A DNA stretch of 64,000 nucleotides from Dehalococcoidia bacterium (GTDB lineage: Bacteria; Chloroflexota; Dehalococcoidia; UBA2979), in NCBI GenBank assembly GCA_046328255.1, contig JAXLWY010000003.1, positions 64,398 to 128,397 on the forward strand, read 5' to 3'. The position numbers and the translations under genes are program-made. Below, piece after piece: positions 2 through 59,940 of the stretch (positions are counted from its first letter, which is position 1; every line of letters starts with the position of its first letter). The notes under the pieces are model-generated. The model was not told the DNA's origin and ran no database searches. It saw only the letters and a list, made by a program, of their open reading frames with translations.

Positions 2-568
2 GACATCTCCGTGCTCGAGTGCACCGCCTCCCTCCTCGAGCACTTCGACATGCAGTGGATCTACGCCCACACCATCCCGCCGAGGGCGGGCAACGGCGCG
101 AGGGCGGCCTGGGGGCTCTACCCCGCCGCCGATGGCTGGGTCGGCGTAGTCTCCGGTCCAGCCCGGCGCTGGGCGAACATCGGGGTGCTGATGGAGTCCG
201 AGGAGCTGCGCGACGAGCGCTTCCTCGCGCCCGGCGCGCAGATGGAGCTCCGAGACGAGATCGACGCGCTGATGCTCCCCTGGCTCGTCACCCACGAGAA
301 GGAGGAGATTTACCACCGCGCGCAGGCCCTCGGCCTGCCGTTCGGCTACGCGGCCACCCCCGCCGACCTCTTCGGCGTCGAGCAGCTCGAGCACCGCGGC
401 TTCTTCGAGCGCATCGAGCACCCGGTGGCCGGCAGCGCGCGCTACCCCACGGTCGCCGCGAAGTTCACCGACGGCCTGTGGTCGCTCGGTCGCGCGCCCC
501 TCCTCGGCGAGCACAACACCGAGGTGCTCGGCGCCGCCGGGTCGCACGTCGCAGGAAGGAACGCCTGA
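2..568 (+). CDS. CoA-transferase family III (CaiB/BaiF-like), C-terminal part; the 5' end is upstream of the window.
   Basis: The ORF is open from the window edge. Motifs HPVAG...YP..AAKF and GEHN are typical of family III CoA-transferase C-termini. The TGA stop overlaps the next ATG (TGATG). Confidence 0.75.
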   Translation, partial: DISVLECTASLLEHFDMQWIYAHTIPPRAGNGARAAWGLYPAADGWVGVVSGPARRWANIGVLMESEELRDERFLAPGAQMELRDEIDALMLPWLVTHEKEEIYHRAQALGLPFGYAATPADLFGVEQLEHRGFFERIEHPVAGSARYPTVAAKFTDGLWSLGRAPLLGEHNTEVLGAAGSHVAGRNA

Positions 569-1312
569 TGCGCGTCTTCGTTGCGGGCGCCTGGGGCGCC
601 GTCGGACGCATCCTCTGCCCCCTCCTCCTCGAGGCCGGTCACGAGGTGACTGGCAGCACGCGCTCCTCCGAGCGTGCGGAGGAGATGCGCGCCGCCGGTG
701 TCACGCCCGCCCTCGTTGATGTGTACGACGCCGCTGCGCTCACGGACGCGGTCGTCGCGGCCCGGCCCGAGGTCGTCATCCACCAGCTCACAGACCTCGC
801 AGGGCTGCGGACCGGCGGACGCACGCCCGGCGTCCTCCGGCCGGGGTCCTGAGCGGCAACGCGCGCGTGCGCATCGAGGGCACACGCAACCTCGTCGAGG
901 CGGCGCTCGCCGCGGGAGCCACGAGATTGATCGCGCAGAGCATCTGCTGGCTCTACGAGGAGGGGCCGCTCCCGCACGTGGAGAGCGATCCGCTCCACCG
1001 ACCCGACGATGGTTCGGACACCACCGGCGTCGACGCCGTGATCGCGCTCGAGACGGCCGTCACCGGGACGCCCGGCATCGACGGGCTGGTGCTCCGCTAC
1101 GGTCGCTTCTTCGGTCCCGGCACGCGGTCGAGGAGGCCCCGCGCTCGGCGCCCGTGCACGTCGCGGCGGCCGCGCATGCGGCCCTCCTCGCCGTCACCCG
1201 AGGCGAGCCCGGGATCTACAACGTGGCCGTCGAGGACGGCTACGTCAGCACCGAGCGCGTCCGCACCCAGCTCGGCTGGTCGCCCGACTTCCGCGTGTCC
1301 ACCCAGGCCTGA
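568..1312 (+). pseudogene. NAD(P)-binding epimerase/dehydratase (NmrA/SDR-like), split over three frames.
   Basis: AGGAAGGA ribosome-binding site before ATG 568. The N-terminus MRVFVAGAWGAVGR is a Rossmann GxxGxxG. The protein continues in a second frame (867..~1140, GTRNLVEAALAAGATRLI) and a third (~1150..1312, PGIYNVA...GWSPDF), so there are two frameshifts. Confidence 0.6.
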
Positions 1313-1407
1313 CGGAGGCACCCCGATGACCACCACCGAAGGCGGCACGGCCACCGGCCCTACGCCCGCAGCGGCCCCTCGAGGACGTCGTCATCCTCGA
1401 TTGCTCC

Positions 1408-2664
1408 ATGGTCTGGGCGGGACCGTACGCGACGAAGCTCCTCGGCGAGATGGGCGCCACGATCATCAAGGTCGAGGCTGCCCGTCACATGGACAGCGTC
1501 CGGGGCCTCGCGAAGCCCGTCCCCGGCGTCGGCGCGTACCCCGACGACGACCCCGGCGCCGAGCCGTGGAACCGCGCCGGCTACTACAACAAGCTGAACC
1601 GCAACAAGCTCAGCCTCTGCATGGACATCCTGCAGCCGGCGGGCCGCGCGGTCTTCCTCGAGCTGGCGGCGCGCGCCGACGTCGTCCTCGAGAACTTCGG
1701 CGGCGGCGTGTTCAACCGCATGGGCTACACCCTCGAGACGCTGCAGGCGGTGAACCCCGACGTCATCCTCGTCTCCATGCCCCCGAGCGGGAACGGTGGA
1801 CCCGAGGGCAACTACGTCGGCTACGGCGTCGCCATCGAGCAGCTGGGTGGCATCGTCGCCCGTACCGGCTACGCCGGCGACATCCCGATGAAGACCGGCA
1901 TCAACTACGGCGATCCCATCGCCGGCATCCACGCCGCGGGCTACATCATGACCGCGCTCATGCATCGACGCCGCACCGGCCGCGGCGGCTTCGTGGACCT
2001 CTCCCAGCGCGAGGGCGCGATCATGTGGGGCGGCGACGAGGTGGTCCGCTACGAGCTCACCGGCAAGGTGTCCGAGCGCATCGGCAACCGCGATGCCTAC
2101 ATGGCCCCGAGCGGCGTGTACCGCTGCGCCCCGGACGAGGCGCACCTCGGTTGCGAGGGCACCACAGCCGGCTCCGACGCGTGGGTTGGCCTCGCCGTCG
2201 GCTCCAACCACGAGTGGGCCGCCCTGGCCGCGGCCATCGGGCACGCCGAGCTCGCCTCGGATCCCGAGTACCTCACCGTCGAGGGCAGGCGCGCCCGTCA
2301 CGACGCCATCGACGCCCTGATTACCGCGTGGACCTCGCAGCGCACGCCCGACGAGGCGATGACGCAGCTGCAGGCGGTCGGCGTCGCCGCGGGCACGGTG
2401 GCGAACATGCGCCGGGTTGTGGAGGACCCGCACCTGCGCGCGCGAGGCTTCTGGCCCGAGGTCGATCAGCCCTCGGTTGGGCGGCACGTGATCGCCGGCG
2501 TTTCGTGGAAGTTCGATCGCACGCCGGGCGGCGTCCGATGGGCCGCGCCCAACCTCGGCCAGCACACCGACTACATCCTGCGCACGATTCTCGGGAAGAG
2601 CGACGCGGACATCGAGGCGCTGCGCGCCACCGGAGTGCTCAACAACATCCCCGACGACGCCTAG
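1408..2664 (+). CDS. CoA-transferase family III (CaiB/BaiF, formyl-CoA-transferase-like).
   Basis: 418-aa ORF. The conserved N-terminal block PLEDVVILDCSMVWAGPY...GATIIKVE runs upstream to 1330 with no in-frame start. An ATG at 1326 lies in another frame, so a 1-nt indel in the CCCC run near 1375 is likely and the true start is about 1326. Confidence 0.8.
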   Translation: MVWAGPYATKLLGEMGATIIKVEAARHMDSVRGLAKPVPGVGAYPDDDPGAEPWNRAGYYNKLNRNKLSLCMDILQPAGRAVFLELAARADVVLENFGGGVFNRMGYTLETLQAVNPDVILVSMPPSGNGGPEGNYVGYGVAIEQLGGIVARTGYAGDIPMKTGINYGDPIAGIHAAGYIMTALMHRRRTGRGGFVDLSQREGAIMWGGDEVVRYELTGKVSERIGNRDAYMAPSGVYRCAPDEAHLGCEGTTAGSDAWVGLAVGSNHEWAALAAAIGHAELASDPEYLTVEGRRARHDAIDALITAWTSQRTPDEAMTQLQAVGVAAGTVANMRRVVEDPHLRARGFWPEVDQPSVGRHVIAGVSWKFDRTPGGVRWAAPNLGQHTDYILRTILGKSDADIEALRATGVLNNIPDDA

Positions 2665-2673: not shown

Positions 2674-3269
2674 CTAGCGGCCGCCCGCAGCCTCGAGGGC
2701 GCTCGCGATCTCGCGGTAGCCGCGCGCCCGCGCATGCCCGAGGGGCGTCACGCCGTCGCGGTCGGCGATGTTCGGGTCCGCCCCGTGCGCGAGGAGCAGC
2801 CGCACCACCTCCTGGTGACGCGAGCCGCCGCTCGAGAGCACGATCGCCTCGAGGAGCGCGGTCCACCGGAGGTTGTTGACATGGTTGACGTCCACGCGCG
2901 TCGACTCGACCAGGAAGCGCACGGCCTCGACGTGTCCTCGCTCGGCAGCCGGGATGAGCGCGGTGCCGCCGAACCGGTTCAGGAGCGTCACATCCGCCGA
3001 CGGCGCGGTCAGACGCAGGATCGCGACGTCGCCCTCGGCCCCCGCGAGGAGGAACGGCGTGTCGAGCCGGTCGTCGCGCAGGTTGACGTCGGCGCCAGCC
3101 TCGACGAGCACCCGTGCCACCTCGGCGGAGTGACCCGCGGTCGCCACGAGGAGCGCCGTGCGCTGCCGCCCGTCGCGCGTGTCCACCAGCGCTCCTGATC
3201 GAGGGCGGCTCGAGCCGCTACCGCATCGCCGAGCGAAGCGGCCGTCAGCAGGTCGGCGTCCGCGCTCAC
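2674..3269 (-). CDS. Ankyrin-repeat protein with an apparent frameshift near 3190-3200; possibly a lipoprotein with a Pro/Ser linker.
   Basis: The 3186 frame encodes at least five ANK repeats (GADVN, TALL.A..GH). The GTG-3269 frame encodes MSADADLLTAASLGDAVAARAAL, which reads as the preceding half-repeat. The upstream sequence in the same frame reads RGLLASACAAGPEPIPQSPTSSPLVSPSPLVSP. Confidence 0.6.
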
Positions 3270-6340: not shown

Positions 6341-6718
6341 CCCCATGCCCGAGGTCTGGCAATGCCCTCAACGCGACTGGCGCCTACCCGAATGGCAGGC
6401 GCTGGCCACCGCTCGTATGAAGACTCGTATGAAGAGAGGTGGACCAGCGGTCAGAGTGTCGGTCCCCGAGAGGTGGCGACGCCCTCAAGCGAGGGGTAGG
6501 TTCTTTGGCGGTAGACGTGGCCGACGCCGCGGACCTTCCCGCTGGGAGTTGTGAAGCCTTGCAGCGTCGCGCGCTCGGCCCTGGCCTCCTGCCGGGGAGC
6601 GCGAGGGGCGGAGCCCTCCGCATGAAAAGGGGTGGGTGGGCAGATCCTCCGCCCCGGAGGGCCGACCTCGTTCCCGCAAGGGATCGCTACGTCTGCCAGA
6701 GAGGCTAGGCCGCCCGCG

Positions 6719-7801
6719 ATGCCCGAGGTCAGCCCGCCCGAGCTCCTCGACTACGTCGAGCGCATCCTCGTCGCCGCGGGTGCGCCCGACCAGGACGCCG
6801 CAATCGTCGCGGCCCACCTCGTCGAGGCCAACCTCAAGGGCCACGACTCACACGGCGTCGTCCGCGTCCCCGAGCACGTCGAGGCGGTGCGGTCCGGCAT
6901 CGTTCAGGCTGACGGCCACTTCACCGTCGAGAAGCAGTCTGCGAGCACCGCGCTCATCGATGGCGGATGGGGCTTCGGACAGGTGGTGGCCCGCCGCGCG
7001 ACCCGCATGGCCATCGAGATGGCGCGCGCGACCGGCGTCGGCGTCGTGAGCGGCCGCCGAGTCGCGCACGTCGGCCGCCTCGGCGCCTACGCCGAGCAGG
7101 CTGTCGAGGCGGGCAAGATCGGCCTCGTCGCCTCGAGCGGCTCGCCCTTGATGGCGGCGCACGGCGGCACGACTCCCCGCCTGTCGACCAACCCGATCGC
7201 GATCGGCGTCCCCACCGCGGACGAGGGCAGCCCGTTCGTCCTCGACATGGCGACCTCGGTGGTGGCGGCGGGCAACGTGCGGCTCGCCCAGCGCCTCGAC
7301 GCCCGCATCCCCGAGGGCTGGCTCGTCGACGCGTCTGGCGCGCCGACCACTGATCCCGCCGCGCTCTCCGCGGGCGCGCTGCTCCCCCTCGGTGGTGCGC
7401 AGGGCTACAAGGGCTTCGGCCTCGCCCTCGCCATCGAGGCGCTGGCGTCGCTCCTCGGCGGCAGCGCCCCCTCGGGTCCCGACTCCCCGCCCGACGTCGG
7501 CCTGTTCGTACTCGTCTTCGATCCCGACCACTTCGCCGGACGCGCGAGCCTCGGCGCCTCGATGTCGACCCTCATCGAATGGGTGAAGCAGCCGCCCTAC
7601 CAGCCCGGCGTCAGCGAGATCCTCGTGCCCGGCGAGCGCGCGCAACGCTCGATGGAGGAACGCGCCCTGGCCATCCCCCTGGACGCCTCGACGTGGGCCG
7701 CGCTCAGCGAGGCGGCAACGTCGCTGGGGGTTGTCCCGCCCTCGCTCGAGCCACCTCGGCGGCGGCACGGGCGGGACGCCGAGGACGACTCGGGCGCCTG
7801 A
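6719..7801 (+). CDS. Ldh family 2 oxidoreductase (malate/L-lactate/sulfolactate dehydrogenase family, PF02615-like).
   Basis: 360 aa. Contains the characteristic HGVVRVPEHV...G.KGFGLALAIE blocks. Confidence 0.8.
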   Translation: MPEVSPPELLDYVERILVAAGAPDQDAAIVAAHLVEANLKGHDSHGVVRVPEHVEAVRSGIVQADGHFTVEKQSASTALIDGGWGFGQVVARRATRMAIEMARATGVGVVSGRRVAHVGRLGAYAEQAVEAGKIGLVASSGSPLMAAHGGTTPRLSTNPIAIGVPTADEGSPFVLDMATSVVAAGNVRLAQRLDARIPEGWLVDASGAPTTDPAALSAGALLPLGGAQGYKGFGLALAIEALASLLGGSAPSGPDSPPDVGLFVLVFDPDHFAGRASLGASMSTLIEWVKQPPYQPGVSEILVPGERAQRSMEERALAIPLDASTWAALSEAATSLGVVPPSLEPPRRRHGRDAEDDSGA

Positions 7802-8714
7802 CCGGCCGCCTTCCGAGCAGTGGTGCGTTGCTCACCAGCAGCTCGTCGATCGGCCCGCGCCCGCCCACCTTCGAGTTGATGGCGCGGCGCGCCGGGATCC
7901 GTCGCAGCTCGTACCCCGCCGACTCGTACAGGTACACGATGAGCGGATGAGGCGAATCCGACAGGAGCACGTGCACCCCTCGCGCGGTCAGACCATCGAT
8001 GCACACGCGCAGCCGCTCCTGGTCCCGCCACCCAAAGTCGGCCGAGGTGTAGCGCGTGAAGCTCGAGGTGGGCGAGAGCGGGTGGAACGGCGGGTCGAAG
8101 TAGACGAAGTCGCCTGCCACCGCCGAGGCGGACGTGATCTCGACGTCGTCGCACGCGAGCTCGGCATCCGCCAGTGCTCGCGACGCCGCCTCGAGCACCG
8201 GCCGGTCGAGGATGCGCGGCGCCTTGTAGCGCCCGTGCGGCACGTTGAACCGGCCGTTCGAGTTGACCCGGTAGAGGCCGTTGTAACACGTCTTATTGAG
8301 GAAGATGAAGCGCGCCGCCACCCCCAGCTTCGAGGTCGGCCGCGACTCGCGAATGCGGTAGTAGGCCGCGGCGCGCCCCTCGGCGTCCTCGGCGTGGTAC
8401 TCGCCCTCGAGGCGCGCGAGGTGCGCACACAGCGCATCGAGGTGATCGCGCACTACCTCGTACGTCGCGATCAGGTCCGCATTCGCGTCCCCGAGGACCG
8501 CGCGCAGCGGAGCGCGCTCACCGGCGAGCGCAAAGAAGAACGCCCCTCCACCGAGGAACGGCTCGAAGTACCGGTTGAAGCTCGACGGCATCGCCTCGAG
8601 GAGCGCGGGCAGCAGCTGCTGCTTGCCGCCCGCCCACTTCAGGAACGGCCGTGCTGCCGAGGGCGTATCGCCCCGGACGTCCTTCCGTGCCTCGATGATC
8701 GTGGGGCGTGGCAT
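7704..8714 (-). CDS. dam: DNA adenine methyltransferase (Dam/D12 class N6-MTase); orphan.
   Basis: Motif I PFLKWAGGK and catalytic DPPF. Its Arg/Pro-rich C-terminal tail overlaps the Ldh2 3' end by about 100 nt. No restriction endonuclease gene is adjacent. Confidence 0.8.
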   Translation of the reverse strand: MPRPTIIEARKDVRGDTPSAARPFLKWAGGKQQLLPALLEAMPSSFNRYFEPFLGGGAFFFALAGERAPLRAVLGDANADLIATYEVVRDHLDALCAHLARLEGEYHAEDAEGRAAAYYRIRESRPTSKLGVAARFIFLNKTCYNGLYRVNSNGRFNVPHGRYKAPRILDRPVLEAASRALADAELACDDVEITSASAVAGDFVYFDPPFHPLSPTSSFTRYTSADFGWRDQERLRVCIDGLTARGVHVLLSDSPHPLIVYLYESAGYELRRIPARRAINSKVGGRGPIDELLVSNAPLLGRRPVRRPSRPRRPARAAAEVARARAGQPPATLPPR

Positions 8715-8962
8715 GAGGCATTCAAACACCCGAGGCGTGCTCGGGGCAAACCCGCCACCCCCGTGACGCGCCCTCGGTGCTTCACGTGCTTCGTCGATCA
8801 CTGTCGCCGCGCAGGGCGACACTGCGAAGCACGCCGCATCCGCGCCGAACCACGCGCCGTGCGGCGCCGTGGCTCAGGGCCCCACTCCGGGTGCGCGAGG
8901 GCCAGTCCTCGCCAGGAGGGGCCAACCTCGCCGAGGGAAGCCGCGGTGGTGTCGAGTCGCGC

Positions 8963-9022
8963 GAAACACGTGCGTAACACGCGCGCAACCTGCACGTCAT
9001 CTACGAGAAAACCGGGTGAAAC
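8963..9022 (+). promoter_or_regulatory. GlnR-box array upstream of amtB.
   Basis: Six 5-mers at exact 11-bp spacing: GAAAC-n6-GTAAC-n6-GCAAC-n6-GTCAT-n6-GAAAA-n6-GAAAC. This matches the actinobacterial gTnAc-n6-GaAAc GlnR site. It lies 50-110 nt upstream of amtB. Confidence 0.6.
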
Positions 9023-9072
9023 GAACTCCCGGCATGCTCCACCAGTCGACAGGGGCGAGGTGGAGGTTACGG

Positions 9073-10329
9073 ATGAACGGCTTTGAGGCGGACACCGGCA
9101 GCATCGCCTGGATGCTGACCAGCTCCGCGCTGGTGCTCTTCATGACACCAGGGCTGGCGCTCTTCTACGGCGGCATGGTCCGCGCAAAGAACGTGCTGAA
9201 CATGCTGATGAAGAACTTCATCAGCATGGGCATCATCACCATCCTCTGGGTGCTGGTGGGCTACAGCCTCGCCTTCGGAGGCGACGCTCCCTTCATCGGG
9301 AACTTCGACCATGTCGGGCTCCGAGGGCTGGTCGGGGGACACCCGGCGAACGCGATTCACGGCGTCGCAGGCGTCCCCGACAGCGTGATCATGGTGTTCC
9401 AGATGATGTTCGCGATCATCACCCCCGCCCTCATCGCGGGCGCGGTCGCGGAGCGCATCAAGTTCAGCGCCTGGGTCGTGTTCATCTCGATCTGGTCCCT
9501 CGTGGTCTACTCGCCGATGGCCCACTGGGTCTGGGACTTCACCGCAACCCCCGAGGGCGTCACGGGTGGCTTCATCGCCAGCACCATCGGCGCGATCGAC
9601 TTCGCCGGCGGACTGGTCGTGCACATCAACGCGGGCGCCGCGGCGCTCGCGCTCATCCTCGCGCTCGGGCCACGCCTCGGCTGGCGGCACACCATCATCC
9701 GACCGCACAACCTGCCCCTGACGCTGCTCGGGACGGGCATCCTGTGGTTCGGCTGGTTCGGATTCAACTCGGGCTCTGCGCTCACCTCGGGCGAGCTCGC
9801 GGCGTGGGCGTTCGTGAACACGCACATCGCGGCAGCGGTCGCTGCGACGGTCTGGGCACTCGTCGAGAAGCTGAAGACGGGCGCGCCGACCACCCTCGGT
9901 GTGGCCTCCGGTGCCGTCGCCGGCCTCGTCGCGATTACCCCGGCAGCCGGCTTTGTGACCCCGGTGGGCTCGATCATCATCGGCGCTGCCGCCGGGCTGA
10001 TCTGCTACCTCGCGCTCGAGATCAAGTTCCGGTTCAACTTCGATGACTCGCTCGACGTCATCGCGGTCCACCTCGTCGGTGGCATCCTGGGTTCGCTGCT
10101 CCTCGGGTTTCTCGCGAGCACCGAGATCAACACGTTCGCGGGGGGCGTCGCGCAGTTCGTCACGCAGCTCGAGTCCGTGGGCCTCGCGCTCGTCTTCTCG
10201 TGCAGCGTCTCGTATGCCCTCGCGATGGCCATCAAGGCGACGATCGGGCTGCGCGTGACCGAGGACCAGGAGCGCCGGGGCCTCGACATCACCCTCCACG
10301 ACGAGCAGGCGTACGCACTCTCCGAGTAG
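9073..10329 (+). CDS. amtB: Ammonium transporter.
   Basis: 418 aa, multi-transmembrane, Amt family. GGAGG ribosome-binding site 7 nt upstream. Confidence 0.9.
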   Translation: MNGFEADTGSIAWMLTSSALVLFMTPGLALFYGGMVRAKNVLNMLMKNFISMGIITILWVLVGYSLAFGGDAPFIGNFDHVGLRGLVGGHPANAIHGVAGVPDSVIMVFQMMFAIITPALIAGAVAERIKFSAWVVFISIWSLVVYSPMAHWVWDFTATPEGVTGGFIASTIGAIDFAGGLVVHINAGAAALALILALGPRLGWRHTIIRPHNLPLTLLGTGILWFGWFGFNSGSALTSGELAAWAFVNTHIAAAVAATVWALVEKLKTGAPTTLGVASGAVAGLVAITPAAGFVTPVGSIIIGAAAGLICYLALEIKFRFNFDDSLDVIAVHLVGGILGSLLLGFLASTEINTFAGGVAQFVTQLESVGLALVFSCSVSYALAMAIKATIGLRVTEDQERRGLDITLHDEQAYALSE

Positions 10330-10392
10330 CCGGATGCCGAACTCGACCACGGATGATTAGCTGGTGAGCGAGCAAGGAGAAGGAACACCCCG

Positions 10393-10731
10393 ATGAAGAT
10401 GGTCATCGCCTACATCAACCCGTTCAAGCTCGAGGAGATTCGCGACGCGCTGAAGGAGACGGGCGTCACCGGCCTCTCCGCCGAGAACATCCAGGGCTTC
10501 GGTCGCCAGGCCGGCCACACCGAGACCTACCGCGGCGCCGAGTACGAAGTGGACTTCGTGCCCAAGGTCCGCATCGAGGTGCTGGTCGACGACAGTCTTG
10601 CGCCCGCGGTGATCTCGACCATCGAGATGACCGCGCGCACCGGCTCGATCGGCGACGGCAAGATCGCGGTCCTCAACGTCGAGGACGTGATCCGCATCCG
10701 CACCGGTGAACGCGGACGGGACGCGCTCTAG
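10393..10731 (+). CDS. glnK: Nitrogen regulatory protein P-II.
   Basis: 112 aa. T-loop RGAEYEVDFVPK carries the uridylylation/adenylylation Tyr. Located immediately downstream of amtB. Confidence 0.9.
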   Translation: MKMVIAYINPFKLEEIRDALKETGVTGLSAENIQGFGRQAGHTETYRGAEYEVDFVPKVRIEVLVDDSLAPAVISTIEMTARTGSIGDGKIAVLNVEDVIRIRTGERGRDAL

Positions 10732-10752
10732 CCGGGGGCAGGGCGAACCTCG

Positions 10753-13108
10753 ATGGCGACGCGCGAGTCCCTGATCTCCGGGGCACTGACGCCGTTCATG
10801 GAGGCGCGGGTGGCAGCCACCACCCGCGCCTTCGCGCGTCGGGGGCGCTTGTTCAGCCCGCGCGACGCCTGCGACATCCTCTCGGATCGCCTCGACGAGG
10901 CACTGGTCGAACTGACGGCCCAGGCCGAGGCGCACGACGTCGCCGTGGTCGCCGTCGGCGGATACGGCCGTCGCGAGCAGTTCCGCCACAGCGACATCGA
11001 CCTCATGCTGCTCGTGCCCGGCGGCGATACCGCGAGAGCGACGGCCATCCTCTATCCGCTCTGGGACGCCGACCTCAAGGTCGGGCACTCGATCCGCACG
11101 GTCGAACAGGCTGCCGAGGCGGCGCGGGGCAACATCGAGACGATGACCGCGCTGTTGACGGCGCGGCTCGTCGCGGGCGACACCGGCCTGTACACGCGCT
11201 GGCAGGCCTCGTTCACGAAGGTCGTCCGAGGCGACTCGGCTGGATCGAGCAGTCGCTCCGGGCTCAACACGCCGAGACAGCGGTACGTGAGCCGTGGCAG
11301 CTCCAGGAGTTCGACGTGAGCGGGCCGCGGCGGGCTGCGCTCATTCCAGGCCGCGCGCGCTGGGTCGAGCTTGCCCATGCCCGCGTCGCGGGGCGCGAAC
11401 CGCAGCCGCTCGCGCCCCCCATCGAGGGCGCACTCGACGTCCTGATGACCGTGCGTCACGCCCTGCATGCGCTGGGGGAACGCAAGAACGACCGGGCTAC
11501 CTGCGCGACGTCGGCGCCGACGTGGCAACGTTCGAGCGTCCGCGCGTGCCCTCGAACGCGCGCTCTTCGAGGCCGGCCGCGCCATCGACGCCTACGCTGG
11601 CGAGCACCTTGAGCGCGACACCGGGCAGCGTCAGGGCCTGCTCGGAAGGCTTCTGCGGCGCGCGAAGGCGGGGTCTGAGGTGCAGGCGCCCGAACCCGAG
11701 ACAGACCTCGCGAAGCTGTACGCCATGCTCGAGGCCGCGAGCTCGAAGCGCCCTGGAGCCCATGCCGCGCGCGCCCTGGCTCGATCGACTGCTTCCCGAG
11801 TGGGAGGTGCTGCGCTGCCTGCCGCACGTCGCGCCGTTCCACCGCCACCCCGTCGACGTGCACTCGTGGCGCACCGTCGAGGAAATCGGATTCGCCATGC
11901 GCGACGACGCGGACGGCACCGGCACCCCCGAGGCGGCCGGCCACCTGACGGACCGCCGCGAGGTGTTGCTCGCCGCGCTGCTGCACGACATCGGCAAGGG
12001 TCACGAGGGCGATCGCGCCCCTGCGGGCGCCGTGATCGTCGAGCGCTTCGGGAACCGCGCCGGCCTCGATCCCGAGGCCGTGCAACGCCTCACCGAGATC
12101 GCTCGCCTGCACCTCCTGCTCCCCACCGTCGCCACGCGGCGCGACATCGCGGATGCGCAGGTGATCCGCGAGACCGCCGAGGCGGTCGGCGATCCGCGTC
12201 TGCTCCACCTCCCCTCTACCTGCTCGCGGTCGCCGGACGCGCGCGCGAGCGGACCCGACGTCTGGAGTCCGTGGAAGGCGCAACTGATCCGCGGCCTCTA
12301 CCTGCGCGTGTTCGACTCGATGACCCACGATCACGCCGAGGAGGAGACGTACGCGCGGTTGCGCGCGCGGGCTGCGGAGGCCCTCGACGGGCAGTTCGCG
12401 GCCGCCGAGGTCTACGCACACCTCGACCGGATGCGTCCTGCGTACCTCCTCAGCACCCCTCCCGAGGTGATCGGCGAGCACCTCGCGCTGATCCGGCAGG
12501 CGAACCACGGCACGGCCGCCCGCCACGACTCGCTGGGTTCCATCGAGCGATTCACGCTCGTCACGCCCGACCGGCCGGGCATCCTCTCGCTCGTCGCGGG
12601 CACGCTCGCGGTGCACAACGCGAACGTCCTCGGTGGAACCGCGTTCACGCGCGACGACGGCGTGGCGATCGAGGTCTGGCACGTGAACGACGCGCTCGGC
12701 CACGACATCGATGGTCGCCGCTGGGGCCGCATCTTCGAGGCGGTGCCGCGCGCGCTCGCGGGCGAGTTCCCGGTCGCGGAGAGCCTCGCGGAGACCCGTG
12801 CCGCCTACCGGGCGGTGCCCCGCGTGCGCATGGAGACCACCGTCCACGTCGACAACCTCGGCTCCGAGCGGTACTCGATCGTCGAGGTGAACACGGCCGA
12901 CCGGCTCGGCCTGCTCTGGGCAATCACGAACGCTCTCCACGAGCTCGCCCTCGATATCCACCTCGCGAAGGTCGACACGATTGGGCCCGAGGTGGTGGAC
13001 GCGTTCTATGTGCTCCGCGAGAACGGACGCCGCGTGGAGGGCGCCGATGAGATCGAACGACTCGTCCGACGCATCACAAAGGCTGTGAACGACCTCGACG
13101 AGATGTGA
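10753..13108 (+). pseudogene. glnD: [Protein-PII] uridylyl/adenylyl-transferase GlnD, full length but read across four frameshifts between ~11225 and 11765.
   Basis: The nucleotidyltransferase domain (GGYGRREQFRHSDIDLMLL) is intact in frame 1. The continuation reads sensibly only by hopping frames: RLGWIEQSL...HALGERKNDR, then LRDVGADVATFER, then ALERALFEAGRAIDAY...SSKRPG, then PWLDRLLPEW...FHRHPVDVHSW...LLHDIGKG (HD domain) plus ACT domains to 13108. Total length (~785 aa) is conserved. Confidence 0.75.
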
Positions 13109-14560: not shown

Positions 14561-15069
14561 TGCGGCGGTTCGCGGACCAGCAGTCGAGCGTGCGCTACTC
14601 CTCGGTGACTCCATCGGCCTTGCGCCCGCGACCCACTCCTCGAGGTCCCCTTGTTCCGCTCCACGATGGGTGGGAACACGGCGCGCCGCTCAACAGGGTC
14701 GTGACCGCTCGCGCGCATCGGGACGTCCGCAGTGGCGCCGTTCTTGATGTGCAGCGTCAGGCGCGGCTCCGCCAGGGTTCGCGTGCAGGACTTCGGCGGC
14801 GGACGCCCACGGCCAGGAACACGCGGTCACCGATGGCGTGCACCAGATCTCCATCCGATGCGTGCGCCTGCTCCTGCGTCGGGTGATGCTGATGTCAGCA
14901 GCAGGGTTGGCGCGGAGCGCCTCGCGGGCGGCGGGATCATCAACGGTCGCTTTCGAGGCGCACGGGCATCGGCCGGACGTCAGGCCTGGCGTGGCGAACA
15001 TCGCGACGCCCGGCGGCCGCCAGCATCGGTCAGCGTCGTGACCAGCCGATCGCGAGCACGAGCGCACTC

Positions 15070-16670
15070 GGACGGAAGGTCCCCCAGGATCCGACGGTCG
15101 TGCGCGCTCCATGAGGGCGAGCAGGAGCGGCGCGATCACGCCGTTCCTGACCAGCCACGTAGAGCGCCTGGATCTCCCGTGACGGGGCTGAAGAATCGCG
15201 ACGCCGCCCAGCGTCGCGGGGATGATCACGCCGTAGAACTGCGGTGCGCTGGAAGGGTGCGGTTCAGTCCCTCGAGCCCAGTCGAACAGCTCTGCGCTGG
15301 CGTAGACGGCCGACCCCGCGAGCACGGGGACCGCGAGGCAGCCCGATACCGATGAGGCCAAGGGCGAACAACATCGAGGCCGCGTTCCCGCGGCGCAGCG
15401 CCTCGGCCGCCTCCGCCGCCGTGCGGATGTCCATCGGACCGCGCGAGTGCAGCGCGGCCGCCGAGGTGAGCACGACGAAGTAGAACCCGATGTGTGCCAT
15501 CACCATGCCGACGCCCACGTCGGCGTCGCCCGCGCGGACCAGTCGAGCGAGACCCGTCGGCGACAACCCTGCGGGATCGATGCCGGGGCGGCCTCCTCCT
15601 CAGTCTCCTGCGCCGTCTGCAGAAGAGGTAGAGGGCGAGATCGTCGTGCCGAGCAGTGCGACCACGGTCGCCGAGGAGGCTGCGTCGGAGACAGCCTCGG
15701 CAGGAGCGTACCGACGAGCGCGGCGCTCAGTCGGGTTGCGCCGCGAACGCTCCGACGACGTGCGCAAGCAGGACGGCGTCAGGGCTTGAGGTAGCGCTGA
15801 ACGTCGAGTACGGCACCACCACCTCGGTGGCCGCGATCCGCCAGTCGAATCGGCACTACGAAGACGCGGCAAGAATGGGCGTGAGGAGGGCGATGGCGGC
15901 GATCGCCCCGAGGTCGGCGGCGATGTTGACGACATTCGCCACGAACAGCAGCGCCACGAGGCCATCAGCCAGCGCCCGTAGTGCCTCGCGATGTTGGTGG
16001 TCAGGCCTCGGCCAGCCGAGCCAGACCGTGCGTGCGCAGATCGACTGCACCGCGTAGTTCATCGGCGGCGGACGACGGTTGCAGACCAGGAGATTGTACG
16101 TGGACCAGTGGCGTTCCGCGATCGTGTAGGTCGAGATCCCGGAGGTCATCGTCGGCCACGCACCGGTGACGAGGCCGGGCCCCAGCCCGTGCCAGCCCGC
16201 GCGCGCCTCCGCGCGATCCGTGCGACGGACCCTCGATCTCGGAGTCGCAGGCGCGATCACGGGCGAGTCTAGAGGACGGCCGTTGTTCGAGGCGACGCCG
16301 CCGCGCGCCGCTACGGCCCGGCGATGCCAATCGGAACGCCGCCGGGCGCGAGCACTCGCGACGGTGACATCGTCGGAGACGCGCTGGGGCGCCTGGAGCG
16401 GCGTCGCTCCGCGGCAACCGCGGCATCGAGGAAACAGCCTGGCAGTCCTCGACGTGGACGAACAGCGTCGTGCGCGGGCCGTCGGCATCCGCCTGCGCGA
16501 TCACCACCACCCTCGGCGGAGTACGTGAAGAGCAGGTAGTCCCGCCGGGTGTCGGCATCGGCGGCTGGAACGCCCAGCCGAGGAACAGTCGCAAGAGCTT
16601 TCCGTCGCACCGGGATCGGTGCTCGCGATGTCGGTGTGGGTGGTGTGCCCACTGCAGCAGGTCCGTCATC
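15070..16670 (-). pseudogene. mntH: NRAMP/MntH divalent-metal transporter gene fragmented by many frameshifts.
   Basis: Minus-strand fragments in different frames match the family: DIASTDPG (like IAYIDPGN), LVALLFVANVVNIAADLGAIAAIALLTPIL, GMVMAHIGFYFVVLTSAAALH (the VMPH..LHS region), AEALRRGNAASMLFALGLIGIGL. No frame is open for more than ~200 codons. Confidence 0.55.
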
Positions 16671-18466
16671 GGAGGTCCTTTCGGCTCCACGTTCGGGTGG
16701 AGGCTAGTCCTCCTCGAGGGGTGGAGGTGTCGCCCTCGGGCAGGCCGAGCTCGCGGGCCTTGAGCAGGCGGCGCATGATCTTGCGGAGCGCGTCTTCGGC
16801 AGGTGATCGAGGATGGTCGATCTCCTCGGCGCCACACCCGGTCCGGGCGTGCTCGCGCGTGGCCGATGAGCTCACGACGCGGCTGGTCCGACCACTCGTA
16901 CCCGTCGTTCCGGCGCGACGAACCTTCACCACCTCCATCGCCACCAGGTCGGGCTTGCGCCGATCACGCCCGCCGCAACTGCGGGATGCTCGATGAGGAT
17001 GCTCTCGACCTCGAACAGCCCGACGAGGTGCCCGGCGGTGTTGATCACGTCGTCGTCACGCCCGATGAACCAGAAGTAGCCGTCCGGCGTCCTTTTTCGC
17101 GCGGTCGCCGGTGATGTACCAGCGCGGACCGCCGTCGGCGTCGTCCTTAAATCGCGAGCTGTAGCGCTCCTCGTCGTGCCAGTAGGCGCGCATCATCGAG
17201 GGCCACGGGACGCGGATGGCCAGCTGCCCCTCCACGTCTGGCTCCGTGATCTCGCGGTACTCGTCGTCGATGACCGCCGGGTGGACGCCGGGGAATGGCT
17301 TGCCCATCGAGCCGGGACGGATGGGAAGCGAGGGGTAGTTCGCGATCCGCGATCGGCGCCGTCTCCGTCTGCCACCAGTTGTCGTGGAACGGCAGCCCGA
17401 ACGCCTCGAGGCCCCACACGACGCCCTCGGGAGGTTGAGCGGCTCGCCGACCGACATCGCGTAGCGCAGACTCGAGAGGTCGAAGCGGTGCGGAATCGCG
17501 ACGCCCGCCTTCATCAGCAGCCGGATCGCCGTCGGCGCCGTGTACCAGACCGTCACGCGGTGGCGCTGGATCAGCTCGAACCACTTCGCCGAGCTGAACC
17601 CACCCTCGTAGATCAGGCTCGTCACGCCGTTCGACCACGGCGCGAACATCCCGTAGAGTGCCCGTGACCCAGCCGGGGTCGGCGGTGCACCAGTCCCCGT
17701 CGTCCGGCTGGAGGTCCTGCACGTACTTGCCCGTCGCGTAGTGCCCGAGGACGGCGCCGTGCACGTGCGACCCGCCCTTGGGCAGGCCGGTCGTGCCGCT
17801 GGTGAAGTGGATGATCGACCAGTCCTCGTTGCCCGTGGGCTCGAGGGGCGCTTCGACCGCGTCCTGCATCAGCGTGGCGTAGTCGAGTGTGGCGCCCTCG
17901 GGACCGCGACGCCCGGCGCGGTCGCCGATCACGATCACCTGGCGCACCGTGGGGATGCGCTCGCGGATCGCCTCGATCTTGGGGTAGAGCGCGGGTGAGG
18001 TGATCACGATCGCGCCCTGCGCCCGGTTGATGCGCTCGGCGATGGGGTCGGGGCCGAACGCGGAGAACAGCGGACAGACGACCGCGCCTCGACGGAGCGT
18101 GCCGAAGACTGAGAAGTAGAGCTCGGGGACGCGGTCCATGAGGAAGAAGACGCGCTCGCCCTTCTCGAGGCCGAGGGTGCCGAGGACGCTCGCGAACTTC
18201 GCGGACTCGCGCCGCATGTCCTCGAAGCTGTAGTTCTCGACGGCGCCGTTCGCGCCCTCCCAGATCATCGCGGTCTTCGCTGGGTTCGCCGCCGCGTGCC
18301 GGTCGACGCACTCGTGGGCGAGGTTCACCACGCCGCCCGGCAGGTCGAGCTCGGCGCGGATTGCGTCCCAGGAGAACGAGGCGAGCAGCGCCTCGTAGTC
18401 GGGCATGTTGGGAGCGGCCTTCAGGGCGCTGACGTCCTTGGCGATCTCCTCGTAGGTGGTGGTCAT
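16666..18466 (-). pseudogene. AMP-forming acyl-CoA synthetase (acetate/propionate-CoA-ligase family) with at least five frameshifts.
   Basis: The first 275 aa are intact from ATG 18466 (GGAGG ribosome-binding site): ...IHFTSGTTGLPKG...CTADPGWVTG. The rest hops frames: MFAPWSNGVTSLIYEGG..., FHDNWWQTETAPIA, GSMGKPFPGVHPAVIDDE...[27 protein letters not shown]..., ...KIMRRLLK... Confidence 0.65.
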
Positions 18467-19369: not shown

Positions 19370-19394
19370 CCGATCCGCCCGCGCTCGGTATCGT

Positions 19395-21319: not shown

Positions 21320-21322
21320 GGA

Positions 21323-23847: not shown

Positions 23848-23869
23848 GGCGACGGTGGGCGAGCGCGCC

Positions 23870-32182: not shown

Positions 32183-32189
32183 CCGCGCG

Positions 32190-33110: not shown

Positions 33111-33119
33111 CGCCTCGCT

Positions 33120-52117: not shown

Positions 52118-52615
52118 CTACTGCCCGAGGCGGAACGGATTGTGCGCGGGATGCAGGCCATCCTGTCCCAGGAAGATGTGGTCCGTGCTGATGAGCTCGT
52201 CGTTCAACTCGAGGCGGAACGTGACCAGGTTGCCGTCGCGGACCCTGAAGTTCACGCCATCGACGCCGTCGAAGCTGTGCACGTCGTAGCGCAGGGTGTG
52301 TCCGCTGTCCGAGATGCGAAACGCGTCACCGCGCTCGAACCGGACCGACTCCACATCGACGAACGTGCCGTCGGTGCGCAGCACCGCCGTGAAATGGTGC
52401 CGGGCGCTGGGTCCGTGCGTGCGCAGCGCGATGCCGCCATCGCCATCCCGACCGATGTAGTAGCCCGTGGGCGCGCCGTCGCGGTCGGCATCGGGGCTCA
52501 CGCCCTGGGCGGACTCGGGTGCGTCCGCCTGGCCGTCGTCGGCGCTGACCGGGACGAGCACGGTCGAGAGCAGCGCGAGGGCGCCCGCGAGGACCAGCAA
52601 TGACTTGCGGAACAT
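52118..52615 (-). CDS. Secreted hypothetical protein.
   Basis: Signal peptide MFRKSLLVLAGALALLSTVLVPVSA. AAGGAG ribosome-binding site 7 nt upstream. Confidence 0.6.
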   Translation of the reverse strand: MFRKSLLVLAGALALLSTVLVPVSADDGQADAPESAQGVSPDADRDGAPTGYYIGRDGDGGIALRTHGPSARHHFTAVLRTDGTFVDVESVRFERGDAFRISDSGHTLRYDVHSFDGVDGVNFRVRDGNLVTFRLELNDELISTDHIFLGQDGLHPAHNPFRLGQ

Positions 52616-52655
52616 CGGATTCTCCTTCGTTGGCAGCCGCGAGTGCTGTTGGGCC

Positions 52656-53183
52656 CTATGGCTTCGGCGTTGCCGACGGCGGAGGCCCCACGTAGACACG
52701 TCCTTCGACGGTGCCTGCGACCGTGTAGTCGATGCCCTGGCCCGTGATGTGAACCGTGACCTCGTCGGTCGCGCCGTCGAGGTCGAGCGTGAAGCGCACG
52801 CGAGTGCGCGTGCCGTCGGGCTTCACGAGTGGCCCGGCGCCCTCGGCGTGCACGTGCTGGCCGTTGATCTCGACCTTCCGCGATCCGCCGTTGTAGAAGC
52901 CGTCGTCCTCCGACCACAGGCGCAGGTGCCCGCGGCTGCCCGCGTCGCCTTCGCCCGCCTTGAAGTCGATGACCGTGGACTCGCCGCCCGTGACCTGGCC
53001 GAACGCGATTGCCACCTCGTTGGCCCGAGGATGCTTCGCGGGTCGCGCTGGTGCGGCCTTGCGCGCGCCCGCCGTCGGCGTGGCGGTCGGCGTCTGCGCC
53101 CCCACCGTCGAGGGCATCGCGATCGCCGCCGTAGTGAGAGCGAGTCCGCCGAGCGAAATCGCGAGGGCTGGGAGTCTCTGCAT
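52656..53183 (-). CDS. Secreted hypothetical protein.
   Basis: Signal peptide MQRLPALAISLGGLALTTAAIAMPSTVGA. AGGAG ribosome-binding site 8 nt upstream. Confidence 0.6.
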   Translation of the reverse strand: MQRLPALAISLGGLALTTAAIAMPSTVGAQTPTATPTAGARKAAPARPAKHPRANEVAIAFGQVTGGESTVIDFKAGEGDAGSRGHLRLWSEDDGFYNGGSRKVEINGQHVHAEGAGPLVKPDGTRTRVRFTLDLDGATDEVTVHITGQGIDYTVAGTVEGRVYVGPPPSATPKP

Positions 53184-57343: not shown

Positions 57344-59176
57344 TCAGGGGGTCTTGCGCTGCGGCGCGTCCTTGTCGAGCCACATCGAGCTCAGGTTGTG
57401 GTTGGCGTAGCAGACCCACCCATCGAGGAGGCCGTGGGGGCGGTAGTTGAGCACCCAGTTGTGCCACGCCGACCGCAGGTGTGCCTCCGGCCACCAGAGG
57501 TCCCACACCTGCTCGTGGATCGTGGTCCAGATCTTCTGCCACGTTGCCTTGCGGCTCTCGAGGTTCGACTCGCGACGCTGCTGGTCGAGCAGCTTATCGA
57601 GGTCGTCGTTCCCCTTCGACCCGTAGTTCAGCCCGCCCTTCGAGTGGTACCAGGGGTAGAGCCACTGGTCGACGGAGTTGCCGGGCGGCCCCCAGACGAT
57701 CCCTGTCGTCTCCTGGAAGCTGCGGTCCGCGAGAGCCGCCACCTGCGTCGCCGAGTCGATCTGCTTGAGCTCGACCTTCACCTCCGGCAGTACGCCATTC
57801 AACGAGGGGATGATCTCGCCGGACGCTTCGCGGTCGTACCACGTCACGTGGCTCCAGCGCAGCGGCCGTTCCTTCGAGAAGCCCGCCGCCTGCATCAGGC
57901 GGCTCGCCTCCTTCGGGTCGTAGGCGTAGTAGCGGCCGTTGGCCTTGCCGGTGGGCGCGCCATCGAAGAGGAACGGCCAGGGCAGCGGGGCATTCGAGTA
58001 CGGCCCCTCCGGGTTGGCGTTGTCGCCCGCGTTGCGACTCTCGTCGATCTTCGTGCGGTCGATCGCCAGCGAGATCGCGCGGCGTACGCGCTCGTCGCGG
58101 AACGAGGGCGAGCGCATCTGGAACTGCCAGCCGTTGGTGTTCGAACCGCGCGACCGTGGACGCGTCCACATCACCATGTCGTTGACCCGCGATCCCATCG
58201 AGTCGGTGTCGGAGTCGTCGAGGGCGGTCCAGAAGGCGTATGTGTTGTCGGCAAAGCCCTTGGCCTGCGCGCTGAGGTCGTTCTGCACGTGCGCCACGTA
58301 GCGATCGATATACGGACGGCCGGTCTCGTAGTAGTCGGGATGCTTCCGGAAGACGGAGCGTTCCTGCTTCGTCCACTCTTCCTGGATGAACGGCCCCGAC
58401 CCGACGGCCTTCGTCTGGATCAGGTTGTCGTCCTCCACCAGCTCCTTGAGCCAGATGAAGCACCATGCCGCGAGGTCCGTGGGCAGGTCCACGCGCGGAC
58501 TCGCGAGGCGCACGCGCACCGTCGAGGCGTCAGGCGCGTCAATCGATGCGACCTCGGCGAACACGTCCTTCTGGGAGCCGCCCGCGCGATAGCGCTCGAG
58601 GGAAAGCCGCACGTCCTCAGACGTGAGATCGCGGCCGTTCGCGGGAGCGACGTTGTGCGTCTTCACGCCCTTCCGCAGGTGGAACGTGAACTCCAGGTTG
58701 TCCGGCGTCGCCTCCCAGCTCGAGGCGAGGTCTGGCTCGATCTCGGGCAGCACGGCGTTCGCGCCCGCACCCACCTTCACCCGCGTCAGCCGCGAGTTGG
58801 TGAGGTTCATCGTGTGCTGCACCGTGCATGAGAGCGTGCGGTTGATGTCCATCGTGGTGGGGTCGAGGTAGCGGTCGACCAGCGTGCCGCCGGGAATCGC
58901 GTTCGCGGATGGATTCGCCTCCGCGGCGGTGGGTGCCAGGATTCGCCGGTACGAGCCGGGCGTCAGCCGCACGTCGCCCGCCGCGACGCTCGGTGCCGGC
59001 TCCGGAGCCGCCGTGCGGGCCGCGCGCGCAGTCGCGCTCGCCGCGGGCTCCGGCGGCGGAGCGCTCGAGGAGCACCCGAGCAGGGCTGCGCCGGCCATCC
59101 CTGCGATGCTCGCGGCCCCGCCTCGGAGGGCTGCTCGCCGGGTGAGTCTGCGGCTCCAGTACCCACGCTCGGCCAA
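57344..59176 (-). CDS. ABC-transporter substrate-binding lipoprotein, family 5 (peptide/nickel, DppA/OppA-like); no cognate partners adjacent.
   Basis: Tat-like leader SRRLTRRAALRGGAASIAGMAGAALLGC with a lipobox. 610 aa. Confidence 0.8.
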   Translation of the reverse strand: MAERGYWSRRLTRRAALRGGAASIAGMAGAALLGCSSSAPPPEPAASATARAARTAAPEPAPSVAAGDVRLTPGSYRRILAPTAAEANPSANAIPGGTLVDRYLDPTTMDINRTLSCTVQHTMNLTNSRLTRVKVGAGANAVLPEIEPDLASSWEATPDNLEFTFHLRKGVKTHNVAPANGRDLTSEDVRLSLERYRAGGSQKDVFAEVASIDAPDASTVRVRLASPRVDLPTDLAAWCFIWLKELVEDDNLIQTKAVGSGPFIQEEWTKQERSVFRKHPDYYETGRPYIDRYVAHVQNDLSAQAKGFADNTYAFWTALDDSDTDSMGSRVNDMVMWTRPRSRGSNTNGWQFQMRSPSFRDERVRRAISLAIDRTKIDESRNAGDNANPEGPYSNAPLPWPFLFDGAPTGKANGRYYAYDPKEASRLMQAAGFSKERPLRWSHVTWYDREASGEIIPSLNGVLPEVKVELKQIDSATQVAALADRSFQETTGIVWGPPGNSVDQWLYPWYHSKGGLNYGSKGNDDLDKLLDQQRRESNLESRKATWQKIWTTIHEQVWDLWWPEAHLRSAWHNWVLNYRPHGLLDGWVCYANHNLSSMWLDKDAPQRKTP

Positions 59177-59278
59177 TCTCGCCTCCTGCCGGTCACCCCG
59201 CGACGCCGCGAGGAGTGCTCAAGCCAGTATCCGAGCGCCCCCTCGTGCGGTAAAGCCACGGTTCATAGACTCGGACGA

Positions 59279-59940
59279 ATGGATGCGCTGACCGTGCTCA
59301 TCGATGTCGACCACACCCTGCTCGATGGCGACGCCATCCGCGCGTGCATCTCCGACGCCATCACAGGCGTCGCCGGCGGTCGGCGGCCGGTCGGTTCTGG
59401 GAGCTGTACCCCGAGGTGCGCGAGGAGCTGGGGCGCGTGGACGTGCCCGCGACCGCCGCGCGCCTCGAGCGGGAGCTGGGTCTCGAGGCGGGCGTCGTGG
59501 GTAACGCGGTCCGGCGTGCACCATTCGCGTCGTGCCTCCACCCGGGCGCTCTCGAGGTGGTGGCGCACCTGGCGACGCTCGGGCGGACCGTCGTCCTCTC
59601 GGACGGTGAGACGACCTTCCAGCAGCTCAAGATCGAGGCGGCAGGCATCGAGGCGGCAGTCGAGGGACGCGTGATGATCACGCTGCACAAGGAGGACGAG
59701 CTGGACGAGGTGCGACGTCGGTTTCCCGCGCGGCACTACGCTCTCATCGATGACCGCGTGGGCATCCTTGCGCGGGTGAAGGCGCAGCTCGGGCCGCAGG
59801 TCACGACCGTGCTCGTGCGGCAGGGGCGCTACGCCGACGAGCTCGACGCCGCCGATGTCACTGCGCCCGACCTCGTCGTCACGCCACTCGCCGAGTTGCT
59901 CGAGTTCGACCGCTCGATGCTGATGCGCGGTGCTCGATGA
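59279..59940 (+). CDS. HAD-superfamily hydrolase, with one frameshift near 59385.
   Basis: The N-terminus MDALTVLIDVDHTLLDG (DxD motif) is in one frame. The remainder RFWELYPEVREELG...VVLSDGETTFQQLK...LIDDRVGIL is in the next. The break is in a G/C run. Confidence 0.6.

Follow-up and report, generated by a model that had tools for sequence, protein, structure and literature searches.

Patches of 1–2-nt indels split conserved genes in a Dehalococcoidia metagenome contig and very probably represent assembly consensus errors

The window analyzed here, a stretch of 64,000 nucleotides, lies on a contig of 132,882 bp from a metagenome-assembled genome (MAG) in NCBI, that of an uncultured organism named "Dehalococcoidia bacterium" (locus tags U0360_), a MAG being among the possible sources given in the first-pass annotation. 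Frame breaks were placed by homologue-guided frameshift-aware alignment combined with Pfam matches across the junctions, and frame changes were also read from the codon-model path. At least 50 small indels were detected in 11 genes of the window, encoding an epimerase, a CoA-transferase, an ankyrin-repeat protein, GlnD, MntH, an acyl-CoA synthetase, a membrane protein, VapB, a phosphotriesterase-family protein (PTE), MenD and a HAD-family hydrolase. In 20 alignments of 15 apparently intact genes used as controls, no shift was found within the gene bodies, so the indel signal is not an artefact of the method; shifts at the N-terminal edge of three controls (amtB, a Dam-like methyltransferase and ADH2) were discarded because the alignments had run into non-coding sequence upstream of these genes. 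tRNA and Rfam genes, which might have provided an independent means of detecting indels, were not found in the window.

The first affected gene, an NAD-dependent epimerase/dehydratase on the plus strand (568–1312), contains two -1 breaks at approximately 837 and 1123, and the codon-model path switches frame at both junctions (residues 94 and 188 of the frame-joined translation), which are covered by a Pfam Epimerase match spanning residues 7–208. Its 94-aa N-terminal fragment is present in the database as MFN8638477.1. The following family III CoA-transferase (1326–2664, plus strand) lost single nucleotides from two C runs, at 1357 and at 1375–1380, and the window encodes the peptide PYARSGP in a third frame between the two deletions. 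The Pfam CoA_transf_3 match extends over positions 1–366 of 366, and the orthologue in the related population L027 is intact (447 aa, 89% nucleotide and 94% amino acid identity). A reconstruction of this gene with one insertion was wrong, the alignment to L027 showing two deletions, and a search with two variants of that later rejected reconstruction gave no exact sequence match. A single -1 break at approximately 3199 was placed by frameshift-aware alignment in the ankyrin-repeat gene on the minus strand (2677–3233), which has Pfam ankyrin repeats and 90% identity to an intact 186-aa L027 orthologue.

The PII uridylyltransferase gene glnD (10753–13105, plus strand) has about seven indels, all between 11228 and 12235, as mapped by alignment to the L012 and L013 orthologues; among these, a deletion at 12213 is compensated by an insertion at 12235. 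The N-terminal 188 aa of GlnD appear in the public record as MFN8638489.1. The densest patch lies in the Nramp-type transporter gene mntH (15009–16241, minus strand), in which alignment to P0390, an Nramp representative, revealed about 19 changes of frame within 1.2 kb; a Pfam Nramp match was obtained from one fragment, and a 134-aa junk ORF of this region entered the database as MFN8638493.1. A search of representatives with a noisy mntH fragment returned mostly spurious GC-rich ORFs, together with usable Nramp sequences. The acyl/acetyl-CoA synthetase (16707–18466, minus strand), aligned to L002, L004 and L028 with 85–95% identity after correction, carries at least 10 indels (±1 or ±2 nt) confined to the 950 nt at its 3' end, the 810 nt at the 5' end being clean, and is publicly annotated as a 439-aa fragment. 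Its corrected C-terminal half, used as a query for near-identical Logan fragments, returned mostly full-length homologues with 70–89% identity. A membrane protein of unknown family (18620–19366, plus strand) has an insertion at 19105 and a deletion at 19232; its orthologue is intact in L028 (248 aa) and partial in L029.

Two 1-nt deletions, at approximately 21448 and 21374, interrupt the antitoxin gene vapB (21326–21578, minus strand; Pfam RHH_1), and both homologues used, from L002 and L028, gave the same two breaks; the adjoining vapC (20939–21319) is intact. The PTE gene (21633–22614, minus strand), with nucleotide identities of 84% to L001, 89% to L025 and 99% to L006, has three indels located by nucleotide alignments: an A inserted inside GGG at 22501, a +1 event in a GC repeat at 22115 and a loss of one G from GG at 21920. 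The Pfam match, covering positions 1–297 of 298, includes all junctions. Within an otherwise intact, syntenic men operon, menD (28667–30506, plus strand) is broken once, at 29340, where a GC unit (-2) was lost from a (GC)n tract, leaving residue 225 with only 1 nt, as determined by tblastn and frameshift-aware alignment with L002 and L004. It is deposited as two proteins, MFN8638506.1 (277 aa) and MFN8638507.1 (359 aa), and a reconstructed intact menD with GC restored had no exact sequence match, a result of little weight. L011, a Logan relative of menH with only 80% identity, begins 4 nt past the menD break. The last affected gene, a HAD-family hydrolase (59279–59940, plus strand), has one -1 break at approximately 59380, where the frame path switches, and the Pfam HAD/Hydrolase match (residues 6–130) covers this junction at residue 33.

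Alignment and Pfam thus confirmed frame breaks at or near all places named in the first-pass annotation; its coordinates mostly fell within 10–45 nt of the mapped sites, one PTE site being about 120 nt away. The three genes it had listed separately, glnD, mntH and the synthetase, were affected as well. The estimate of at least 30 frameshifts turned out to be too low and that of more than a dozen affected genes too high, and the events were not all single-base as described, menD having lost a 2-nt unit and the synthetase carrying +2 and -2 events. The conserved flanking protein sequence and preserved gene lengths reported at that stage held after frame correction (82–95% amino acid identity to close relatives), and the predicted split ORFs already exist in the public record, for example for menD, the synthetase and the epimerase.

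The distribution of the indels along the window was extremely uneven: 46 of 48 mapped events lie within the first 22.6 kb (p~1e-18), only two are present in 41 kb of the same contig, and the dispersion index per kb bin reached 7.9. The 30 kb between 29400 and 59300, in which neither the codon-model path nor homologue alignments detected an indel, serve as an internal control; all codon-model frame changes from 29.4 to 59.3 kb coincide with ordinary gene boundaries, and no shifts were found in homologue alignments of menH, menB, menA, menC and others. The clustering persists below the gene level. All nine synthetase shifts tested fall within the 3' 54% of the gene (p=0.004), the glnD events are all confined to 1 kb, and the dense patches begin in the middle of genes (synthetase, glnD) and cross gene borders, one of them covering mntH together with the 3' half of the synthetase. 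The indels therefore follow patches of sequence, not genes, a feature missed in the first-pass annotation. GC content did not differ between patches and clean regions.

The breaks had initially been assigned to G/C runs and considered typical of homopolymer errors, but in a window with 70% GC such placement was no better than chance. The sequence context was evaluated with the 28 best-placed sites and again with mntH included. Runs of at least 4 nt within ±5 nt were found at 11% of the indel sites and 11% of the background positions, and for runs of at least 3 nt the proportions were 57% vs 39% with the 28 best-placed sites (p=0.04, uncorrected) and 49% vs 39% with mntH included (p=0.12); only 2 of the 97 runs of at least 5 nt in the window are near an indel. 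The comparison of indel sites with homopolymer positions thus gave no meaningful enrichment, and a homopolymer-length error mechanism was not upheld. The two deletions in the CoA-transferase gene (C5 to C4 and C4 to C3) are the only ones that match this picture, while the A inserted at 22501, the T lost at 19232 and the gains or losses of GC-dinucleotide units at 29340, 16954 and 22115 are clear non-homopolymer events. The homopolymer signature of the Nanopore R9, 454 or Ion Torrent type is absent. Neither did motif enrichment near the indels, such as a methylation-type error signature (TCGA, GATC and others), give anything convincing, the best motif being CGGA with p=0.007 before correction for approximately 170 k-mers.

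After frame correction, dN/dS against close relatives was 0.10–0.22 in the shifted genes vs 0.05–0.14 in their intact neighbours, and against L004 it was 0.14–0.23 and 0.26–0.34, respectively, so that purifying selection was similar in the two groups. In the synthetase, the half with nine shifts had a value of 0.14 vs 0.20 in the clean half, and window-specific amino acid changes were not raised. All indels are ±1 or ±2 nt, with insertions about as frequent as deletions, and the members of compensating pairs are 2–22 nt apart. The aligned gene bodies of the shifted genes contained no convincing premature stops, the sole flagged in-frame stop, at 15032, belonging to the C-terminal end of mntH, where the alignment is poor; besides in-frame codon gaps, these genes had no deletions longer than 2 nt, and their lengths were kept. 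Accordingly, relaxed selection, nonsense codons, larger deletions and deletion bias, by which pseudogenes would be recognized, were not found, and the genes beneath the indels appear functional and under normal purifying selection, being very probably intact in the organism.

An independent Logan assembly of run SRR26348421 included contigs that match the window with identities of 99.9% and 99.1%. The latter, L006, aligned over 2.5 kb and lacks the extra base at 22501, the one site comparable out of about 50; its PTE N-terminus is intact and identical to the consensus of the relatives. L006 may be a sister strain, since it differs from the window at 22 positions, 15 of which fall in a strain-difference patch (22513–22642) adjoining the 22501 insertion, and in the coding part of this patch all differences but one are synonymous. 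Orthologues were intact in five related populations; the comparisons, covering L001, L002, L004, L012/L013, L025, L027 and L028, gave unbroken genes throughout, and no recurrence of lesions was seen in the same lineage, with 22501 intact at the one same-population site and the relatives' orthologues unbroken. A scan of genome contigs for relatives produced one match, with 74% amino acid identity. The truncated products of the window are deposited in databases from this MAG only; their absence from Logan is uninformative, since that run yielded only two of eight intact proteins used as controls.

These results indicate with high confidence that the frame breaks are consensus errors of the deposited assembly and do not represent mutations in the organism itself. 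The consensus contains patches of 0.1–2.6 kb with approximately 0.5–1.6% small indels of 1–2 nt in both directions, the window outside the patches, including one 30-kb stretch, being clean. The likeliest cause may be a noisy-read consensus corrected only locally, as could happen, for example, when long reads are polished by short reads that failed to map everywhere or, alternatively, when reads from co-occurring strains are merged; gene callers would then split or truncate the genes.

The preference for assembly error over reductive decay, already expressed in the first-pass annotation, was upheld by dN/dS, lesion spectrum, patchiness and intact orthologues. If the lineage were in reductive decay and eleven genes had been inactivated by real frameshifts, it would be understandable that many genes are affected and several of them repeatedly, as expected once a gene is dead, and the lesions are indeed present in the deposited sequence and its annotation, with the comparison to another assembly covering one site. 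However, neither dN/dS nor lineage-specific substitutions are raised even in the gene half with nine shifts, convincing nonsense codons and a deletion bias are missing, no deletion exceeds 2 nt if in-frame codon gaps are set aside, the events group into patches smaller than a gene, which also extend across gene borders, and compensating pairs lie a few nucleotides apart. Moreover, a 99%-identical population has no lesion at 22501, the one site that could be compared, the targets include glnD, acetyl-CoA synthetase and menD inside an intact men operon, and 41 kb of the contig have only two events, all of which makes genuine pseudogenes very improbable. Apart from the possibility of joining the frames, nothing speaks in favor of programmed recoding, in which ribosomal frameshifting or transcriptional slippage would restore them. 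It is already refuted by the single-frame orthologues in all relatives, and the sites share no slippery motif, with up to 19 shifts in one gene, in both directions and with ±2 steps; its probability is negligible.

Many indels combined with normal dN/dS would also fit a real burst too young to have left a substitution signal, for example in a replication- or repair-defective mutator, and the strain differences beside one indel do indicate a heterogeneous population. Yet the indels of mismatch-repair mutators arise mainly in homopolymers and repeats, a pattern not seen here, and a mutator would not restrict its events to patches of 0.1–2.6 kb, sparing 30 kb. Independent mutations could not credibly account for about 19 events in a single 1.2-kb gene and for compensating pairs spaced by 2 nt, and the joint loss of glnD, menD, acs and mntH would be strongly deleterious, so a recent burst appears marginally less probable than decay. 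An equally slight chance is left to a real burst of 1–2-nt indels localized to the region of approximately 22 kb, possibly caused by region-specific error-prone repair or replication; if true, glnD, mntH, acs, menD and others would have been knocked out before substitutions accrued.

Consensus errors of this kind have known parallels. Small-indel frameshifts that fragment gene calls are documented for the consensus of long-read and of low-coverage MAGs, and the IDEEL test, proovframe and Kastor address such gene-fragmenting errors (PMC9262707; bioRxiv 10.1101/2021.08.23.457338; PMC12007338). Similarly, conserved genes of the window are split by short indels with their length and flanks kept and the annotation fragmented, and an indel disappears when the same population is assembled accurately, here at one site, 22501. 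The textbook error profile of Nanopore R9 consists mostly of homopolymer deletions; in contrast, the indels of the window are bidirectional, in part 2 nt long, without homopolymer enrichment and strongly patchy. Pseudogene-rich reductive genomes, such as those of Mycobacterium leprae and recent obligate symbionts, are characterized by elevated dN/dS values, nonsense codons, a bias towards deletions, including larger ones, and lesions common to isolates. The window resembles them in having many unrelated genes disrupted in frame, often with several breaks each, but has none of these four characteristics. Co-occurring strains can also collapse into one consensus during metagenome assembly, and the variable patch at 22513–22642 adjoining an indel, together with the absence of this frameshift in a haplotype-consistent contig (one site only), is similar to that situation. 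A related effect has been described for alleles (PMC8445201).

In practical terms, this public MAG feeds split and truncated proteins into databases, such as the two halves of menD, the 439-aa piece of the synthetase and junk ORFs originating in mntH, and on a naive reading glnD, mntH, menD and acs would be scored as lost or the lineage reported as being in genome decay. Because these errors occur in patches and independently of homopolymers, most of them would escape homopolymer-aware filters, but not re-polishing or a frame correction guided by homology. Since the breaks are almost certainly assembly consensus errors, the finding is an ordinary one and has little significance for the biology of the organism, in which the genes are very probably intact.

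Frame was followed along the whole window with a codon-usage Viterbi path over six frames, which contained many same-strand frame changes without a gene boundary, and with a frameshift-tolerant protein-to-DNA aligner using the relatives' orthologues as queries. The closest relatives were uncultured, metagenome-derived Dehalococcoidia/Chloroflexota: two syntenic contigs for 14–35.6 kb of the window (L002 and L004), two for amtB-glnB-glnD-ADH (L012 and L013), and further contigs for the phosphotriesterase-family (PTE) gene (L001 and L025), the ankyrin and CoA-transferase genes (L027), and the synthetase 5' end with the membrane protein gene (L028). An independent Logan assembly of run SRR26348421 additionally provided L005, 99.9% identical to 6588–8640 without gaps, and L006, 99.1% identical to 22278–24799. 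No internal shift was found in 15 apparently intact control genes (20 frameshift-aware alignments); N-terminal-edge shifts in three of them (amtB, the Dam-like methyltransferase and ADH2) were rejected as the alignment running into upstream non-coding sequence.

The total reached at least 50 events across 11 genes, so that the minimum of 30 given in the first-pass annotation was surpassed, while its "more than a dozen" genes was slightly high; its break coordinates were close overall, the worst being about 120 nt off. Frameshift-aware alignment placed approximately 19 shifts in the Nramp gene mntH (15009–16241, minus strand), 9 net shifts in the acyl/acetyl-CoA synthetase (16707–18466, minus), one of which resolved into a deletion of 1 nt at 17655 and another at 17657, and, in glnD (10753–13105, plus), 5 net shifts together with two compensating indels (12213/12235). 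Alignment to relatives gave three shifts in the PTE gene; two each were present in vapB (identically placed by two homologues), the CoA-transferase and the membrane protein gene, and one each in menD and the ankyrin gene. For the two epimerase breaks and the single break in the HAD-family hydrolase, the Pfam match to the frame-joined translation was uninterrupted at the junctions. The proposal that the events were single-base did not hold for all of them: the (GC)n tract in menD was one GC unit short, and the synthetase had 2-nt events in both directions (+2 TC, +2 GC and -2). The ankyrin gene aligned from residue 1 of a 186-aa orthologue at window position 3233 (minus), where the codon is leucine, not ATG/GTG; either a TTG/CTG start or a further small error may account for this.

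The nitrogen-sensing cluster amtB-glnB-glnD (9020–13105, plus) was syntenic with L012 and L013, its glnB protein being 100% identical to genes on four contigs with a DNA identity of only 88–89%. A 2.4-kb block between vapC and the synthetase (18620–20939; membrane protein, TMEM165/GDT1 protein and SRPBCC protein) was absent from L002 and L004 and present in L028 minus the TMEM165 gene, and is a small variable region among the relatives. The slot adjoining the PTE gene, which holds vapBC in the window (20939–21578) and in L002, is occupied in L004 (9362–10906) by a DNA cytosine methylase and an HNH endonuclease; this slot exchanges small defence/addiction modules. The menaquinone operon (27275–34265, plus; menF, menD, menH, menB, menA and menC) was complete and in synteny with L002 and L004, with a break in menD only. 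Two adjacent secreted-protein genes (52118–53183, minus; signal peptides; 175 and 193 aa) belonged to no Pfam family.

Assembly error was favored over decay by seven independent lines: selection, lesion spectrum, compensating pairs, distribution, relatives, independent assembly and function. Reductive-evolution pseudogenes are marked by raised dN/dS, nonsense codons, larger deletions and reproducibility, and the window pattern departed from them in these respects. Frame-corrected dN/dS against close relatives was 0.10 for both the ankyrin gene and the 5' portion of the synthetase, 0.11 for the PTE gene, 0.13 for the CoA-transferase and 0.22 for the membrane protein, compared to 0.05 and 0.14 for the intact neighbors ADH and SRPBCC; against L004, the shifted genes had 0.14–0.23 and the intact genes 0.26–0.34. 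Within the synthetase, the half with nine shifts had a lower value (0.14) than the clean half (0.20), and window-specific amino acid changes, scored where two relatives agree, amounted to 6–10% in shifted genes versus 12–30% in intact neighbors. A single in-frame stop was flagged in the shifted genes, at 15032, where the C-terminal tail of mntH aligned poorly, and the aligned genes had no deletions above 2 nt other than the usual in-frame codon gaps. The gene lengths were preserved, as had been noted before, and the numbers of insertions and deletions were similar. Compensating indels 2–22 nt apart in glnD, mntH and the synthetase left a few garbled codons within an open frame. The orthologues in all related populations examined had a single frame. 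Programmed frameshifting, recognized by conservation and a slippery motif, also did not fit. Functionally, menD was broken inside an otherwise intact, syntenic menF-D-H-B-A-C operon, and other targets included glnD and acetyl-CoA synthetase.

The events were strongly clustered, with a dispersion index of 7.9 for per-kb counts: the first 22.6 kb contained 46 of the 48 mapped events (binomial p~1e-18), and the stretch from 29.4 to 59.3 kb none. All nine synthetase shifts fell in the 3' 54% of the gene (p=0.004), and every glnD event inside 1 kb of its 2.35 kb. Because the densest patch (15.0–17.66 kb) covers the whole of mntH and enters the 3' half of the adjoining synthetase, it follows the sequence and not the gene.

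Only one of the approximately 50 sites could be compared in the independent assembly. Contig L006, which may represent a sister strain, was without the base inserted at 22501 and encoded MERVMPPIYDLDE, the same as the relatives. Directly adjoining this insertion, 22513–22642 contained 15 of the 22 window–L006 differences (15 positions in 130 nt versus 6 in the remaining 2.4 kb), synonymous except one in the coding part; genuine strain variation thus lies immediately beside an indel. This suggests a merging of reads from co-occurring strains, or polishing reads that failed to map, in at least some of the patches. Truncated N-terminal products of menD, the synthetase, glnD and the epimerase were present only in the NCBI metagenome-assembled genome (MAG) to which exact sequence matches assign the window; their absence from Logan carries no weight, since just two of eight intact control proteins were found in that run.

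The diagnosis of assembly error was correct, but the homopolymer mechanism attached to it was wrong. Runs of at least 4 nt lay within ±5 nt of 11% of the 28 best-placed sites and of 11% of background positions, making the statement that breaks fall in G/C runs true only trivially, the whole sequence being G+C-rich (70% all along). For runs of at least 3 nt the values were 57% versus 39% (p=0.04, uncorrected), or 49% versus 39% with mntH included (p=0.12), and only 2 of 97 runs of at least 5 nt had an inferred indel within 10 nt. Nucleotide alignments to 84–99% identical relatives revealed clear non-homopolymer events: an A inserted into GGG (22501), a lost T (19232), a C lost from TACGAG (17655), and GC-repeat units gained or lost (22115, 29340 and 16954). 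Classic homopolymer-like changes were seen only in the CoA-transferase, where one deletion shortened C5 to C4 and the other C4 to C3. No sequence motif was convincingly enriched around the indels, nor were GATC or TCGA significantly enriched as indel markers. A D12-class (Dam-like) N6-adenine DNA methyltransferase is encoded at 7800–8822 (minus), without an obvious partner restriction gene. The error pattern, together with published work on indels that fragment genes in long-read and low-coverage MAGs (PMC9262707; bioRxiv 10.1101/2021.08.23.457338; PMC12007338), leads us to infer that the events would originate from an incompletely polished noisy-read consensus.

The split ORFs predicted earlier were evident in the deposited annotation (locus tags U0360_, proteins MFN86384xx): menD is present in two pieces (MFN8638506.1 and MFN8638507.1), the synthetase as a 439-aa "AMP-binding protein" whose final ~170 residues are out of frame, and the entries also include a 134-aa junk ORF of the mntH region. 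Three public Nramp cluster representatives (P0406, P0502 and P0511), with a good Nramp start and C-terminal halves of arginine/proline-rich nonsense, are other metagenome-derived entries with this frameshift artefact. The pattern works in the same way as known assembly-derived frameshift artefacts and agrees with their testable features. The frame breaks are very probably an ordinary artefact without biological novelty, and a useful caution for users of this MAG or its proteins.
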